Origin: an uncultured bacterium
GTDB lineage: Bacteria; Patescibacteriota; Minisyncoccia; Phycocordibacterales; PALSA-1337
Length of the DNA stretch: 64,000 bases
Assembly: GCA_963701025.1 (NCBI GenBank)
Contig: OY969557.1
Location: 106,405-170,404, forward strand
Direction: 5' to 3'
The notes beneath the pieces are model-generated. The model made no database searches. It was not told the DNA's origin and saw nothing but the letters and a program-made list of their open reading frames with translations. Below are positions 45,887 through 52,445 of this stretch, in pieces (position 1 is the stretch's first letter; each line of letters begins with the position of its first letter). A program made the translations under genes and the position numbers.

Positions 45887-46141
45887 TCATTCCTCCTCCA
45901 GGTGTTTGACTTCCAATTTTTTCGGTCCCTTTCTGCTCCGTCGCGCTTCCGGCTTGGGGACGCTGTCCATGCCGGCGAGAAGCGTCTCTATCTCATCGCG
46001 GCGGTATACGCGATAGTTATTCATCGGGTGTCGCAAGGCCTTGAGTTTGCCATTCTTGTCCCAATTACGCAAGGTCAGGGTAGTGACCCCCAACATTTCG
46101 GAAGCCTGCTTTATACTGATAAGTTTCGGTGATTGGTTCAT
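45887..46141 (-). CDS. excisionase/MerR-type HTH DNA-binding protein
   Basis: ISIKQASEMLGVTTLTLRNWDKNGKLKALRHPMNNYRVYRRDEIETLL is an Xis-family HTH. Likely start at MNQSPKL (46141); the ORF track extends to 46216. Confidence 0.5.
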   Translation of the reverse strand: MNQSPKLISIKQASEMLGVTTLTLRNWDKNGKLKALRHPMNNYRVYRRDEIETLLAGMDSVPKPEARRSRKGPKKLEVKHLEEE

Positions 46142-46349
46142 AAAGATTGGTAAATAGTATATATCTTTGGTCAAATTGTAGCATATTTTTGAACAAGACA
46201 GACCAGGCCAGACCAATCCTGACTAACACAGTATTATTCTTGACAACATCAGCATTCATGTTACTCCGTATAGTCATCATAATAACATGCAACCTTATCC
46301 CCACTTTTTTGTGCGTATTCTTTTGACATTCAAGCTATAATTATGACAA

Positions 46350-49300
46350 ATGAGAGACTCTATAGAAATAGAGGATCACCAATACATCTCGTCTCGCCGA
46401 GCCGCCGAGATAGCCAGATATTCACAGGATTATATCGGTCAGCTTTGTCGCTCTGGACAAGTCGCAGGAAAGAGGATAGGTAAGATATGGTTCGTCGATC
46501 AGGACTCTCTTTTTCAGCATGTCCAGAAATATTCCATACCGGTTTCCTCGCAGATCTCTTCCGGATCCGTTCCATCTTTTCTGCCTGAACTGAAAAAATC
46601 TAAACTGACAGAGACTGACCCTCTGAATGAAGTCCCGATAAGGCCACCGATCAATGCTCCTCCGGCGCCAGTCTTTATCAGAGATATCATCACCGGTCCC
46701 GGCGCGAAATTATTCGCCACCTTCGCCCTGTGCTTATTGAGCGGGTATTCCGTTGCGTATGCTTTGGCCGGTTACGAGCCAGCTGTGAGCGCGTATGGCC
46801 GCGCGACGGATGCCACGACGGCATACGTATCAGGACTCGTCTCTCCCTACGCGAACGTCATCGCAGAGACAATGCCGCGCTCGCTCGATACCGCGTCTGT
46901 CTTCGACGCTGTGGGCTCATGGTGGCAGGGAGTTTCCGGTGCTGTCCGCACGGGAGTGCTAACCTTCCTCGGCATAGGCGATTCGTCCGGAAGCGTAGCC
47001 ACTTCGACGGCACCGACCGTCGCTTCCAGCTACATCAATGTCTATCCATCCGGTACCACGACCATCATTCGCCAGGTTGTCCAAGCACCGGGGCAGACCA
47101 TCGTTACACAAAATTCTTCCAACCAAGGCCTCATTCAAAACCTTGCCGATCGGCTATCGGCTCTCACCTCCGCATTCAACGCCTTCCAAGCTCTCCAGAC
47201 TCTCCAGAACCAGCATGTCAGTGTGTCATATCCGGCTTCGACCCAGACCATAGTGAGCTCCGGCGGAGGCAGCTCCGGCACGGTGACCTCCGTCGACGTC
47301 TCCGGAGGCTCCACAGGACTGTCCTTTTCCGGTGGGCCGGTCACGACATCCGGTACCATCGTTCTCGACGGCACTCTCGATACGGTGAATGGCGGCACCG
47401 GCACATCAACCGCGCCATCATACGGACAGCTCTTGGTCGGCAATACGGCCGGTGGGTACAATCTTCTCGCCACTTCATCTTTGGGCATAACCGGTGGAGG
47501 AGGATCTGGCACGGTCAATGCCGGCACCGCCGGACAGCTGGCATACTACGCCTCGAACGGCATGACCGTTTCAGGCATCGCCACCTCGTCCTTGAATATC
47601 AACACAGACAACCTCGTTCAAGGCGTGACCAACCTCTTCTATTCGAATTCTCTGGTTAATTCGTTCGTCAATTCCTCTTCGACCATACCCAAGACTTACA
47701 CTGCCAATGCTTTCAGCGGCAATCAGACATTTAACGGAAGCGTCAACGCGACGAACGGACTCACCGCCAACGCTCTCTCCGTCGGTTCGCTCTCCGGTAT
47801 CCTCTATGGAACCGCTGGCTCGGTCGGCACCATTGCTACCTCATCTCTTAATCTGTCTATTCCGCTGGCCTCCACCACGGGCATCCTTGCCATCGGTAAC
47901 GGCGGTACCAGTACGTCGACCTCGCCGACATATGGTCAACTTCTCGTTGGCAACGCGGCTGGCGGATACGACCTACTCGCCACTTCGTCGCTCGGACTCA
48001 ATCTGACGAGCTTGTCTGGAACGCTTTCCGTGGCCAGCGGCGGCACAGGCCAGACGACATACACGGACGGCCAGCTTTTAATTGGCAACTCTTCGAATAG
48101 CAGTCTTACCAAGGCCACTTTGACCGGCACTGCCAATGAGATAGGCATCGCCAACGGCAACGGTTCCATAACTCTATCAACTCCGCAACCTATCGGCACG
48201 GCTTCGACGCCGACATTCGCATCCACCACCCTTTCGAACTTTACCGCCGGCTCCATTCCATTCTTTGCCTCCGGCGGCTCGCTCGCCCAGAACAACGCTA
48301 ATTTCTTCTGGGATAATGTGAATAATAGATTAGGCATCGGTTCGTCAACACCCGGATTCTCTCTGTCCGTAAATGGAGCAGGATATTTCGGCGGCAACTT
48401 AACGGCCGCAGGAGGACTGACCGTGAGCGGCAACACGAGCCTTGCTAACATCGCCTCTAGCAGTGTCCTTTTTGCCGGAGCGGGAGGGTTATTGAGCGGT
48501 TCCCCCAACTTCACCTTCGACGGTACGACAGCTTCCGCCGCCGGCCTCCTGGTGACCCCCGCTATATATACTGGCTCTCAAGTGAGCGGTCTTTCCGCCA
48601 CCACGACATTGGATGATGACAACGGAAACTGGACCAATAACGGCACAACGCTTCTGTGGAGCGTTACACCATATACGATCACATCAGACGGTCTCTACGT
48701 CTACGGCAACACCGTCAATTCTTCGCTTGTCCTATCCGTCAACGGTCATGCAAGCAACGGTAACCATAATATAGACCTGGACTTCAGCTGGAATGCCGCC
48801 TCTGGCGCCACGGGATACATAGTATCGATAACTAAAGACCCGCAGCTCCTTACCGCATACCCATATAATTCTTACGCCACGACCGTGACAAGTTCGGTGG
48901 CAGACATCAACACGAACTTTTCAGCTCTCGCCACCTCCTCTTCCGCGTCTTCCATCTTCAGTTCCAGCATGTCGGGAGCGACAGCCATCAACGGAAGCAA
49001 CCTCACCATCAACGTCGCAACCACGACCATTGCGGGAACGAACCTCTATGTGAATACGCCGATCGCCACTTTCGGCGGAGAGATAGCAGGAAGCGGACCT
49101 CTCGGTACCACGACCTTTGCTGGTCCTGTTGTCATCAATCAAAATGCCGTACGGAGCGCCGCCCAAACCAACAAAGCCATCTTGTCTGTCAATGGGAACG
49201 GGAATAATGAAGCTTACGACCTGCTCGATCTGTACAACACCGCGAATCAGACGGGAACGTCTTTCGTAGCTGGAGGCGGCATGCTCTCGAACGCCTATAT

Positions 49301-50996
49301 CAGTATTGATGGATATAGGCATTACAACAATGGTGTCATGAATCCCGATTGCGAGGTCAATGCCGGCCCCGGCAATCCATTCCCCCAATCAGTCTGTTCC
49401 ACAATGCTTACCTTGTTGCCAGATGTCGGCACAACCGAGCAGATATATGCGGGAACTAGCACATATGCTATTCAGGTGAGCAACTTGAATGGCGGACCGA
49501 AACAATACAATGACGGCAGCCAAGATCCCTACTACTTCGGCCAAACCGTCTTTCAGGTGCTGGGCAATGGAACTATGAACATTCTCGGAAACTTCACCAT
49601 AGGCACGACCACCGCCACCACAACTAATGACGGCAATCAGGCTCAACCCCCTTCACCCAATCCGTTCTCTATCTACGCCACGTCCACTGGTGCTTTCTTG
49701 TTTGGAGTTACGCAGGCTGGAAATGTTGGCATCGGTACGAGCTCGCCTTCAAACGCTCTAGAAGTGGCGGGCAATGGTTTCTTCTCTGGTAATCTCACTG
49801 GCACCAATCTGACGGCGACGGGCACTTTGGCTGTGACTTCAACCACAACGACTGGCGGGCTTTCTGTCGGTTCGCTTTCCGGATTGCTCCTTGGCACAAG
49901 CGGAGCGGTGTCGGCCACAACTTCTATTAGTAATTCATATCTGACAAATTCGACTATCAGTGGCATATCTCTAGGATCTAACCTCTCGTCTCTCACTGCC
50001 ACCGACAACACTCTGACTTTTTCCGGTTCATATAATGGAAGCACGGCACAGACGGTCGGCCTCAATCTCGGTAATGCGAATACATGGACCGCACTGCAGA
50101 CGTTCAATAACGGCCTCATATCGCTGGCCAGCTCGACCATGACCAATCTCGTCGTCGGACTTTCCACGACCACGAGCGCTACCACGACTAATTTTGCCAT
50201 CAAAGGCATCACCAATTCATTCCTCGCCACGAATGCGAACGGAACCGTCATCGCCACATCTGCGCCGAGCGGAGGTTCTCTCTCGGGCGGTGTTGCTAAT
50301 TGGCTCACCTATTGGACAGGAGCAGGAACAGTCGGCGCCACATCGAGTCCGACCGTCGGCTATCTCACCGCTACATCCACGACCGCCACGAACTACTTTG
50401 GCGGCAATCTGCAAGTCGGCCAATGCGTCACGGGCGACACGAAACTGCGCCGTCGCCGCAAAAATAAAAAGGCTGGTGCTGGAACTGGCGCTGGAACGGG
50501 CGACGATGACGAGTTTGAGGATGTCCGCATCGACGAGATCGGCGAAGGTGACGAGATACTGACCTTCGACGCCATGATGGGCTCGTTCAAGGCATCCAAA
50601 GTCCACCGAGTCGTCTACGCTGGCCTGCGACCTATCATCCAGATCGAGACAAAGGGCGGCTCGACCATACGGACGACCGAAGAGCATCCGTATTTCGTGC
50701 GGATCGAAAAGACCGCGTCCGGCATCCCCAACTATTTCAACGGCGGCGCATGGAAAGCAGTCGGCGCTCTCGCGCCTGGAATAGATATCGCCGTTCTCGG
50801 AGCCGATGGACAGCCTGTCTGGGATACCATCGTCTCCCTGGAGAAATTACCGGAAGAGAAAGTCTACGACATCGAAGTCGCCGGCACGCATTCGTTCGTC
50901 GGCAACGGCATCGTCGCCCACAATACGGCGTTCTATGTGGATATGGCGGATCAACGGATCGGAATAGGGAATAGTAGTACCGACGCATGCGATTGA
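46350..50996 (+). CDS. giant (1548 aa) tail-fibre-like surface protein: N-terminal Xis-type HTH, TM helix, Gly/Ser/Thr-rich fibre repeats, C-terminal Hint domain
   Basis: N-terminal HTH (ISSRRAAEIARYSQDYIGQLCRSGQVAGKRIGKIWFV), TM helix LFATFALCLLSGYSVAYALAGY, recurring (R/N)(L/V/I)GIG(S/T)SSP..L.V.G and GGTGTSTAPSYGQLLVGN repeats. Hint blocks are listed under 50424..50924. Confidence 0.7.
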   Translation: MRDSIEIEDHQYISSRRAAEIARYSQDYIGQLCRSGQVAGKRIGKIWFVDQDSLFQHVQKYSIPVSSQISSGSVPSFLPELKKSKLTETDPLNEVPIRPPINAPPAPVFIRDIITGPGAKLFATFALCLLSGYSVAYALAGYEPAVSAYGRATDATTAYVSGLVSPYANVIAETMPRSLDTASVFDAVGSWWQGVSGAVRTGVLTFLGIGDSSGSVATSTAPTVASSYINVYPSGTTTIIRQVVQAPGQTIVTQNSSNQGLIQNLADRLSALTSAFNAFQALQTLQNQHVSVSYPASTQTIVSSGGGSSGTVTSVDVSGGSTGLSFSGGPVTTSGTIVLDGTLDTVNGGTGTSTAPSYGQLLVGNTAGGYNLLATSSLGITGGGGSGTVNAGTAGQLAYYASNGMTVSGIATSSLNINTDNLVQGVTNLFYSNSLVNSFVNSSSTIPKTYTANAFSGNQTFNGSVNATNGLTANALSVGSLSGILYGTAGSVGTIATSSLNLSIPLASTTGILAIGNGGTSTSTSPTYGQLLVGNAAGGYDLLATSSLGLNLTSLSGTLSVASGGTGQTTYTDGQLLIGNSSNSSLTKATLTGTANEIGIANGNGSITLSTPQPIGTASTPTFASTTLSNFTAGSIPFFASGGSLAQNNANFFWDNVNNRLGIGSSTPGFSLSVNGAGYFGGNLTAAGGLTVSGNTSLANIASSSVLFAGAGGLLSGSPNFTFDGTTASAAGLLVTPAIYTGSQVSGLSATTTLDDDNGNWTNNGTTLLWSVTPYTITSDGLYVYGNTVNSSLVLSVNGHASNGNHNIDLDFSWNAASGATGYIVSITKDPQLLTAYPYNSYATTVTSSVADINTNFSALATSSSASSIFSSSMSGATAINGSNLTINVATTTIAGTNLYVNTPIATFGGEIAGSGPLGTTTFAGPVVINQNAVRSAAQTNKAILSVNGNGNNEAYDLLDLYNTANQTGTSFVAGGGMLSNAYISIDGYRHYNNGVMNPDCEVNAGPGNPFPQSVCSTMLTLLPDVGTTEQIYAGTSTYAIQVSNLNGGPKQYNDGSQDPYYFGQTVFQVLGNGTMNILGNFTIGTTTATTTNDGNQAQPPSPNPFSIYATSTGAFLFGVTQAGNVGIGTSSPSNALEVAGNGFFSGNLTGTNLTATGTLAVTSTTTTGGLSVGSLSGLLLGTSGAVSATTSISNSYLTNSTISGISLGSNLSSLTATDNTLTFSGSYNGSTAQTVGLNLGNANTWTALQTFNNGLISLASSTMTNLVVGLSTTTSATTTNFAIKGITNSFLATNANGTVIATSAPSGGSLSGGVANWLTYWTGAGTVGATSSPTVGYLTATSTTATNYFGGNLQVGQCVTGDTKLRRRRKNKKAGAGTGAGTGDDDEFEDVRIDEIGEGDEILTFDAMMGSFKASKVHRVVYAGLRPIIQIETKGGSTIRTTEEHPYFVRIEKTASGIPNYFNGGAWKAVGALAPGIDIAVLGADGQPVWDTIVSLEKLPEEKVYDIEVAGTHSFVGNGIVAHNTAFYVDMADQRIGIGNSSTDACD
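50424..50924 (+). other. Hint (intein / bacterial intein-like) domain, 167 aa, Cys1 ... His-Asn plus Thr(+1)
   Basis: Block A CVTGDT, block B GSTIRTTEEHPYFV (TxxH), block F KVYDIEVAGTHSFVGNG, block G IVAHN|T. No endonuclease domain. A basic/acidic loop (KLRRRRKNKKAGAGTGAGTGDDDEFED) is inserted after block A. Confidence 0.75.
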
Positions 50997-51167
50997 CCTT
51001 TCTGGTTCTGACGCAGAAATCCATAATAACGCCGGCAACATTAGTCTTAACACTGGCCCTAGCGGTATTAATAGCAGTGATGATGCTATATCCAGTACCT
51101 GTGGCCGGATATAACTCTTAATCGAATGGTGATGGTAGTCGTGTGAACATCCCAGACATACGACAAA

Positions 51168-52445
51168 TTGCGAAAACACGGCGAAGCCCTTGGTACTGAT
51201 TCGAGTGGAAAGATTTTCTGCTTCAACATCCCGCTTTCGGATGAACGGCTCAAGACCGGTATCACAACATTGGGAGGCACTGACGGCCTAGCGGCCGTGA
51301 ATGCCTTGAACCCAGTTTCCTTCTACTGGAAGGATCCGTCCATACCCGGAACAGGAGGGACCGGCCAGCAATTCGGCTTCATCGCCCAACAGGTGGCTGG
51401 CGTATTGCCGAATCTCGTCGGCACTACTTCTCCGACCGCGCTCACGCCGGGACAGACCTACATCCTGAACTATCAAGGCATCATCCCCGTTTTGGCGAAG
51501 GCCATCCAGGAACAGCAGGGCGAGATAGTCACCGCTTCATCGAGCTTGTCCGTTCTGACCATCGGCCAGACGACGCTGGCCTCGTCCGCTTCGACCACTG
51601 CCCTGTCGCTCTCTTCGCTCGCCGCGCAGGTGCAGTCGTTGTCGCTCGCTTTGAACACCGCCTCGAGCACCACGAACGGTCTGTTGGTACAGATCGCCGC
51701 GCTCACATCAACTACGACGCTCGCTTCTACTACCGCCGCGATCGCTTCTTCCACTGCTTCGACGCTCTCGGTTTCCTCCTCGTTCATCCAGACCATCGCT
51801 AACGCCGTCGTCGCTCTGCTCCAGTCGAGCGGGCAAGCCATACAGACGGCAGGGAAGTGGGCCGTCGGCGAGATTGATGCAACGCTCGCCGTCTTCACCG
51901 ACGTAAAGACGGGCTCGATCGAAACGCAGACTGCATCGGTGGCGAACGGCATCGAGATGACAGACTCGGCGACAGGACAGGTCTATTGCGTCAGGATAAC
52001 GAACGGCGATCTGACCAGGACGCTCGGAATATGCACGGTTACAGCTACGACGACAGCGCAGACGGTGCAACCGGTTCAAGCGCCGAGTTTCAATAGTCAA
52101 GCCTCAAGCAATAACCAAGAACCAAACACCAATAACCAAGCGAGCACGACTACTTCAAGCACCATATCGGCGACTTCAACCTCAACCCCGGCTTCGACTC
52201 CAGCGCCGATCCCGTCGAGCGTGACTGCGACGAGCACGACACAAACTTCCACTACCTCTACTGCTACAGATGCCGCATCGACGCCGACTTCGTCGACGCC
52301 TCCGGCTCAAACTGGAAGCCCGGCTGATGCTTCAGTTGGCACGGCTGATTCGACACCGCCATCAACTCCAGCTTCGACAGCGTCCGATTCATCAGCCGGA
52401 GCCTCCGCGCCTCCGGCTTCCGGCGATTCCACGACGAGTCCGTAG
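51168..52445 (+). CDS. protein with an N-terminal phage tail-fibre intramolecular-chaperone (peptidase S74-like) domain and a Ser/Thr/Pro-rich C-terminal region
   Basis: SDERLKTGI..NPVSFYWKD..QQFGFIAQQVAGVLPNLV matches the SDxRxK...GfiAQev..v.P.lV pattern of endosialidase/tail-spike C-terminal chaperone domains. It starts with TTG in the same frame as the giant gene, separated from it by stop codons. Confidence 0.5.
   Translation: MRKHGEALGTDSSGKIFCFNIPLSDERLKTGITTLGGTDGLAAVNALNPVSFYWKDPSIPGTGGTGQQFGFIAQQVAGVLPNLVGTTSPTALTPGQTYILNYQGIIPVLAKAIQEQQGEIVTASSSLSVLTIGQTTLASSASTTALSLSSLAAQVQSLSLALNTASSTTNGLLVQIAALTSTTTLASTTAAIASSTASTLSVSSSFIQTIANAVVALLQSSGQAIQTAGKWAVGEIDATLAVFTDVKTGSIETQTASVANGIEMTDSATGQVYCVRITNGDLTRTLGICTVTATTTAQTVQPVQAPSFNSQASSNNQEPNTNNQASTTTSSTISATSTSTPASTPAPIPSSVTATSTTQTSTTSTATDAASTPTSSTPPAQTGSPADASVGTADSTPPSTPASTASDSSAGASAPPASGDSTTSP

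Follow-up and report, generated by a model that had tools for sequence, protein, structure and literature searches.

How should two neighbouring open reading frames be read when the first is a giant fibre-like protein with a putatively self-processing Hint domain inside one of its repeats, and the second, beginning 171 nt later, opens with a Peptidase_S74 chaperone domain? The question is raised by ORF1 and ORF2 (Table 1), which lie in the window, a 64,000-nt stretch of DNA from an uncultured bacterium that probably belongs to the Patescibacteria (CPR). We consider that ORF1, the gap and ORF2 are probably the remains of one giant-fibre gene, in which the intein would be a selfish element and the break a set of at least three indels within ~175 nt.

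Table 1. Features of the fibre locus, in window coordinates
Feature	Position	Strand	Basis
Small MerR/excisionase-type HTH gene, divergent from ORF1	45887-46141/46216	-	Pfam MerR, HTH_17, TIGR01764
ORF1, giant membrane-anchored fibre protein, 1548 aa (HTH, one TM helix, fibre repeats, mini-intein, 23-aa C-extein stub)	46350-50996	+	ORF list; Pfam, NCBIfam, PHROG matches
N-terminal HTH_17 (excisionase-type) winged-helix domain, aa 12-58, presumably cytoplasmic	46383-46523	+	
Sole hydrophobic segment of ORF1, aa 119-142 (AKLFATFALCLLSGYSVAYALAGY)	46704-46775	+	
Fibre region, predicted extracellular	46776-50423	+	repeat listing; PHROG 31660
Predicted class-1 mini-intein (Hint domain), 167 aa, ORF1 aa 1359-1525	50424-50924	+	Pfam, NCBIfam, PDB, model
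Loop inside intein, polybasic then acidic, low complexity (KLRRRRKNKKAGAGTGAGTGDDDEFED)	50442-50522	+	
C-extein stub: Thr+1, TAFYVDMADQRIGIGNSS (start of next fibre repeat), 5 out-of-frame codons, stop	50925-50993	+	
First frameshift, apparent 1-nt insertion, 18 codons 3' of intein	50979	+	frameshift-aware alignment
171-nt 'intergenic' gap, read as disrupted former coding sequence	50997-51167	+	
ORF2, probable severed C-terminal module of fibre gene, 425 aa, TTG start	51168-52445	+	
Peptidase_S74 intramolecular chaperone/autoprotease domain	51237-51533	+	PF13884, homolog HMM, PDB 8jov, PHROG 1980
Post-S74 conserved tail: Ser/Thr/Ala-rich helical-looking stretch and Cys-bounded motif	51534-52067	+	
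ORF2 C-terminus, low complexity, Ser/Thr/Pro/Ala-rich	52068-52442	+	translation

The fibre protein and its N-terminus

A first-pass annotation of this locus had described ORF1 as tail-fibre-like, with an excisionase-type HTH at its N-terminus; both descriptions hold, and all of the sequence elements that it quoted were found where it had placed them. Tail-fibre families of PHROG match both ORF1 and ORF2, with ORF1 aa 553-629 matching the tail fibre protein family PHROG 31660 (E 6.5e-11). The fibre repeat has the consensus (N/R)(V/L)GIG(T/S)S(T/S)P...L.V.G (e.g. at aa 661 and 1126) and is missing from a middle part (aa 740-1100), for which no relatives were found among the related loci or in a metagenome scan. 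A search for a close ortholog of ORF1 found none. HTH_17 matches ORF1 alone with an E of only 0.043; an N-terminus of this type, HTH included, is common to 11 related giant ORFs, and HTH_17 is matched by 10 of 14 aligned N-termini (best E 3.8e-7). The hydrophobic segment, which holds the top Kyte-Doolittle 19-residue window of ORF1 (1.75), appears to be a signal-anchor TM helix, and at the matching place of the relative P0103 lies what looks like a cleavable signal peptide.

The ORF1 HTH had also been held to be specifically paralogous to the small divergent gene upstream. This does not stand, as BLASTP between the two gave no match and hhalign gave a probability of 78% over 38 columns only. 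On their sequences the two belong to a common superfamily with remote similarity, the small gene being of MerR type (Pfam MerR, E 2.1e-10; HTH_17, E 2.8e-6; also TIGR01764). The divergent gene is treated here as a neighbour of the fibre system.

A mini-intein in a fibre repeat

The Hint domain of ORF1 runs from CVTGDT through TTEEHPY (TxxH) to VYDIEVAGTHSFVGNGIVAHN|T, with Cys1, block B as TTEEH, blocks F/G in VYDIEVAGTHSFVGNGIVAHN and no nested domain. It scores 52.7 bits against Pfam Intein_splicing (PF14890; E 5.6e-14, cutoff 35.8), lies above the cutoff for TIGR01443 intein_Cterm and resembles solved DnaB mini-inteins (E 1.5e-9), and in the AlphaFold2 model (pLDDT 79) its fold is close to that of the NpuDnaB intein 4o1r (TM 0.89, normalised to the target). 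Judged by its residues it is a canonical class-1 mini-intein, sharing with those of Ssp and Npu DnaB and Mtu RecA the Hint fold, blocks A, B, F and G, Cys1, TxxH, the terminal His-Asn and the +1 Thr nucleophile, a length of ~150-170 aa and the lack of an endonuclease domain. Whereas those mini-inteins occupy conserved sites in replication or nucleotide-metabolism enzymes, the host here is a non-enzymatic extracellular repeat fibre, the lineage inserts at a repeated structural motif with several relatives per protein, and a conserved polybasic/acidic disordered loop follows just past block A. The loop is disordered in the AlphaFold2 model, and a basic run recurs there in almost every one of the 48 family inteins described below.

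Truncation of the fibre repeat had been put down to the Hint domain. The domain is instead inserted in frame at a conserved point of the repeat, which restarts in the C-extein (TAFYVDMADQRIGIGNSSTDACD*, 23 aa including Thr+1), and the truncation is due to a 1-nt frameshift at ~50979, 18 codons 3' of the intein, followed by further frame changes. The C-flank TAF.VD..G.(V/I)GIGTTSP recurs in the related loci L004, L009, L011 and L034. With its catalytic residues intact the intein should be self-splicing; after translation it would fold and splice out, joining ...NYFGGNLQVGQ to TAFYVDMADQRIGIG...

The insertion point (...VGQ|C...HN|T...) is that of 48 inteins in giant Patescibacteria fibre genes, and giant ORFs with from one to at least six inteins of the ORF1 type each were found at 54 genome loci, almost all in Patescibacteria MAGs. 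Cys1, His-Asn and Thr+1 are present in all 48 precisely delimited family inteins, Gln stands at -1 in 36 of the 48, and fibre repeat lies on the flanks; as far as these sequences go, the lineage, with its insertion point ...VGQ|Cys1 ... His-Asn|Thr+1-(A/Y)-(F/I/L), is specific for the fibre repeat. The full-length relatives nest NYN (25/47), two unknown types (9 and 8) or DUF3800 (1), as opposed to LAGLIDADG or HNH domains. Only positions 1-94 and 276-337 of the family HMM are covered by the ORF1 intein, which keeps 32 of the 35 positions with a conservation of at least 90%; by this comparison it is a copy that lost the nested NYN-type or other domain kept by most relatives. Literature searches gave no description of a repeat-dwelling Patescibacteria fibre intein lineage, and the lineage is apparently undescribed so far.

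A probable single gene in two pieces

ORF1 and ORF2 had been suspected of once having been continuous, and it had been proposed to look elsewhere for fibre, Hint and S74 in one ORF. Such ORFs exist: L006 (2803 aa), L009 (3772 aa) and L051 (2979 aa) each carry fibre, intein(s), fibre, S74 and tail without interruption, L006 and L009 beginning with the HTH and L051 having none detected, and ORF1 and ORF2 are therefore best taken as pieces of one gene. The place of the module in other relatives agrees with this continuity. In P0103, the best relative of ORF2, S74 plus tail forms the C-terminus of a 1672-aa fibre protein (residues 1275-1557, 60% identical), and among the best 150 ORF2 matches nearly all have S74 well away from the N-terminus. 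The alignment also reaches upstream of the TTG, with ORF2 aa 1-23 and the frame-0 codons back to 51147 matching the pre-S74 linker 'LGTD.NGK.VC..SLSD.RLK'.

ORF2 is in the reading frame of ORF1, and its TTG stands 23 codons ahead of the S74 domain. ORF2 aa 24-84 score 54.6 bits against PF13884 (E 1.4e-14, cutoff 22), so that profile searches uphold the S74 assignment as they do that of the Hint domain; an S74 HMM built from homologs gives E 1.7e-37, and the tail fibre C-terminus of PDB 8jov (E 6e-5) and PHROG 1980 are matched as well. The dyad motif S24-D-E-R-L-K29 is present, with cleavage predicted before Ser24 (51237-51239) and Lys29 at 51252-51254. The Cys-bounded motif GIEMTDSATGQVYCVRITNGDLTRTLGIC of the tail (51948-52034) is also found in the intact L051 ORF, ORF2 aa 7-298 are 60% identical to P0102 and P0103, and tails like the low-complexity C-terminus occur in P0023, P0102 and P0103. 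No TATAAT-like box was found ahead of the TTG, though one lies 7-14 nt ahead of many starts in the window, including that of ORF1. Over its 425 codons ORF2 is undisturbed and aligns with its relatives from one end to the other, and it could remain functional.

The gap contains 11 frame-0 stops, and since both TAA and TAG are among them recoding would not rescue it; promoter-like or terminator-like sites were looked for on its + strand and none was found. Skipping nt 50979 restores the repeat GIGNSS/PTHAIDLSG, and the frameshift-aware alignment there to P0025 has a score of 47, which 0/200 shuffles reach (21.9 +/- 3.6; z ~7). The frame path runs from 0 to +1 (~50980-51105), to +2 (~51122-51151) and back to 0 from 51153. 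Codon-usage log-odds trained on ORF1 are as high in frame +1 over 51000-51105 as in true coding sequence, and then pass to frame +2 and to frame 0. Further downstream 'NGDGSRVNI/QTYD' was matched to P0024 with a skip at 51152, and tblastn of P0025 extends upstream to 51147; the middle of the gap (~51055-51120) gave no significant homolog alignment, the summed score being reached by 20 of 150 shuffles. At least three frame changes thus fall within ~175 nt, as against none in 1275 nt of ORF2, a clustering with p ~0.002 under a uniform distribution by our own rough estimate. Such clustering is unlike slow neutral decay; one local event, ongoing selection on ORF2 or a problem of local assembly would agree with it.

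The intact protein would have consisted, in order, of the cytoplasmic HTH_17, one TM anchor, an extracellular 'NVGIGTTSP...L.V.G' fibre, the S74 chaperone/autoprotease and a short conserved tail, with the 167-aa class-1 mini-intein inserted in one fibre repeat. A tight cluster of at least three frame-changing indels would have interrupted the gene 18 codons past the intein, and because of it ORF1 would end 23 residues past the intein and S74 plus tail would be left as ORF2 without recognisable start signals. If the breaks are real, the cell produces a fibre without the S74 module for its maturation, and ORF2 is a remnant stranded not long ago.

Alternative explanations

The real gene might also be intact, at ~2030 codons (HTH, TM, fibre, mini-intein, two fibre repeats, S74 and tail), and the breaks an artefact of assembly or consensus, arising where a hypervariable 3' cassette junction was poorly polished or its strain variants were merged. 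We regard this as rather unlikely, while giving it some weight: the frame changes are packed between two long clean ORFs and sum to a multiple of three, which puts ORF2 back in the frame of ORF1; the cassette of S74 plus tail has a mosaic character, being 60% identical to P0103 when the local similarity between the P0103 body and ORF1 is only ~31-37%, and sites of this kind are where strains differ; the MAG L033 is likewise frame-broken 30-47 codons past its intein, with an S74-bearing ORF to follow; and frameshift-rich public assemblies exist for fibre genes of this kind. However, at least three separate frame changes and unalignable sequence in 175 nt exceed a single miscall, the long intact ORFs of the window (1548 and 2425 aa) imply high global sequence quality, and no homopolymer longer than CCC is found at 50979 or 51152. 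It seems improbable that the split is a functional gene fission, with ORF2 expressed alone, through reinitiation or a start at TTG 51168, to give a free protein of S74 plus tail, e.g. a trans-acting trimerisation/chaperone factor or a separate surface protein. The undisrupted ORF2 is conserved over its whole alignable length and the linker upstream is decayed, which suggests purifying selection on ORF2, but neither a promoter-like site nor a TATAAT-like box precedes the TTG, and fibre-linker homology crosses the supposed start and continues upstream. In nearly all relatives, moreover, the module closes a longer protein at its C-terminus, the few N-terminal cases being short fragments, and a 23-residue 'substrate' ahead of the cleavage Ser is hardly sensible. 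S74 domains reportedly act intramolecularly, as is said to follow from the 2007 endosialidase work of Schwarzer and colleagues.

As to the Hint domain, the first-pass annotation had offered a BIL-like domain or a true mini-intein. BIL domains, reportedly treated by Amitai et al. in 2003, come in A and B types and are Hint domains of variable secreted or surface bacterial proteins, for which cleavage or splicing is possible in principle, as for the ORF1 intein. We see only a slim chance that the latter is a host-serving module of BIL or Hedgehog type, which would cut the fibre, or pass the N-terminal part of the fibre through the thioester to another nucleophile, so that the distal end is released, cross-linked or diversified. 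Its home is a class of secreted, variable, repeat-rich surface proteins with many copies per protein, its fold matches include BIL and Hedgehog structures, the identical flanks of several copies in one protein (L036) suggest co-duplication with the repeat over homing, and a search of the related ORFs for an intein-free 'GQ|T' junction gave none, which lends no support to homing of the lineage. Yet the splicing residues Cys1, Asn and Thr+1 are invariant (48/48), most copies hold a nested nuclease-like domain, as is characteristic of mobile inteins, DnaB and RecA mini-inteins are the closest matches in sequence and structure, and joining the exteins gives a normal repeat. As a rule a +1 nucleophile or the canonical C-terminal motif is missing from BIL domains, and none is known to carry a nested nuclease-like domain; in this family Thr+1 and His-Asn never vary, and most inteins have a nested domain. 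Of the two options the true mini-intein is thus favoured over the BIL domain, by the invariant Thr+1 and the nested domains of the full-length relatives, and nothing was found in support of the further suggestion that the Hint domain generates C-terminal variability. The ORF1 intein is best read as a selfish element rather than a device needed by the fibre.

Comparison with phage S74 domains and intact relatives

ORF2 resembles the S74 domains of endosialidases and phage tail fibres (K1F endoNF, T5 pb1) in PF13884 and the S-D-x-R-x-K Ser/Lys dyad, in its placement after fibre repeat in intact relatives and in its similarity to tail-fibre C-termini. Unlike these, S74 of the ORF2 type lies on a cellular chromosome (probably CPR) as part of a membrane-anchored giant protein and has an extra conserved tail of 100-300 aa, with a Cys-bounded motif and Ser/Thr/Pro tail in ORF2 and DUF5011 elsewhere. 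In L038 and L049 S74 is internal, with fibre and intein downstream, and in the window it is cut off from the fibre.

L006 (Giovannonibacteria), L009 (Taylorbacteria) and L051 resemble the window gene in architecture and intein lineage, the N-terminal HTH being common to the window gene, L006 and L009 and the tail motif to the window gene and L051. They are uninterrupted and carry full-length inteins of 347-397 aa, whereas in the window gene the intein is a mini-intein of 167 aa and the 3' junction is broken; identity between the window gene and these relatives is low, at ~50% in the intein and ~30-36% in the HTH.

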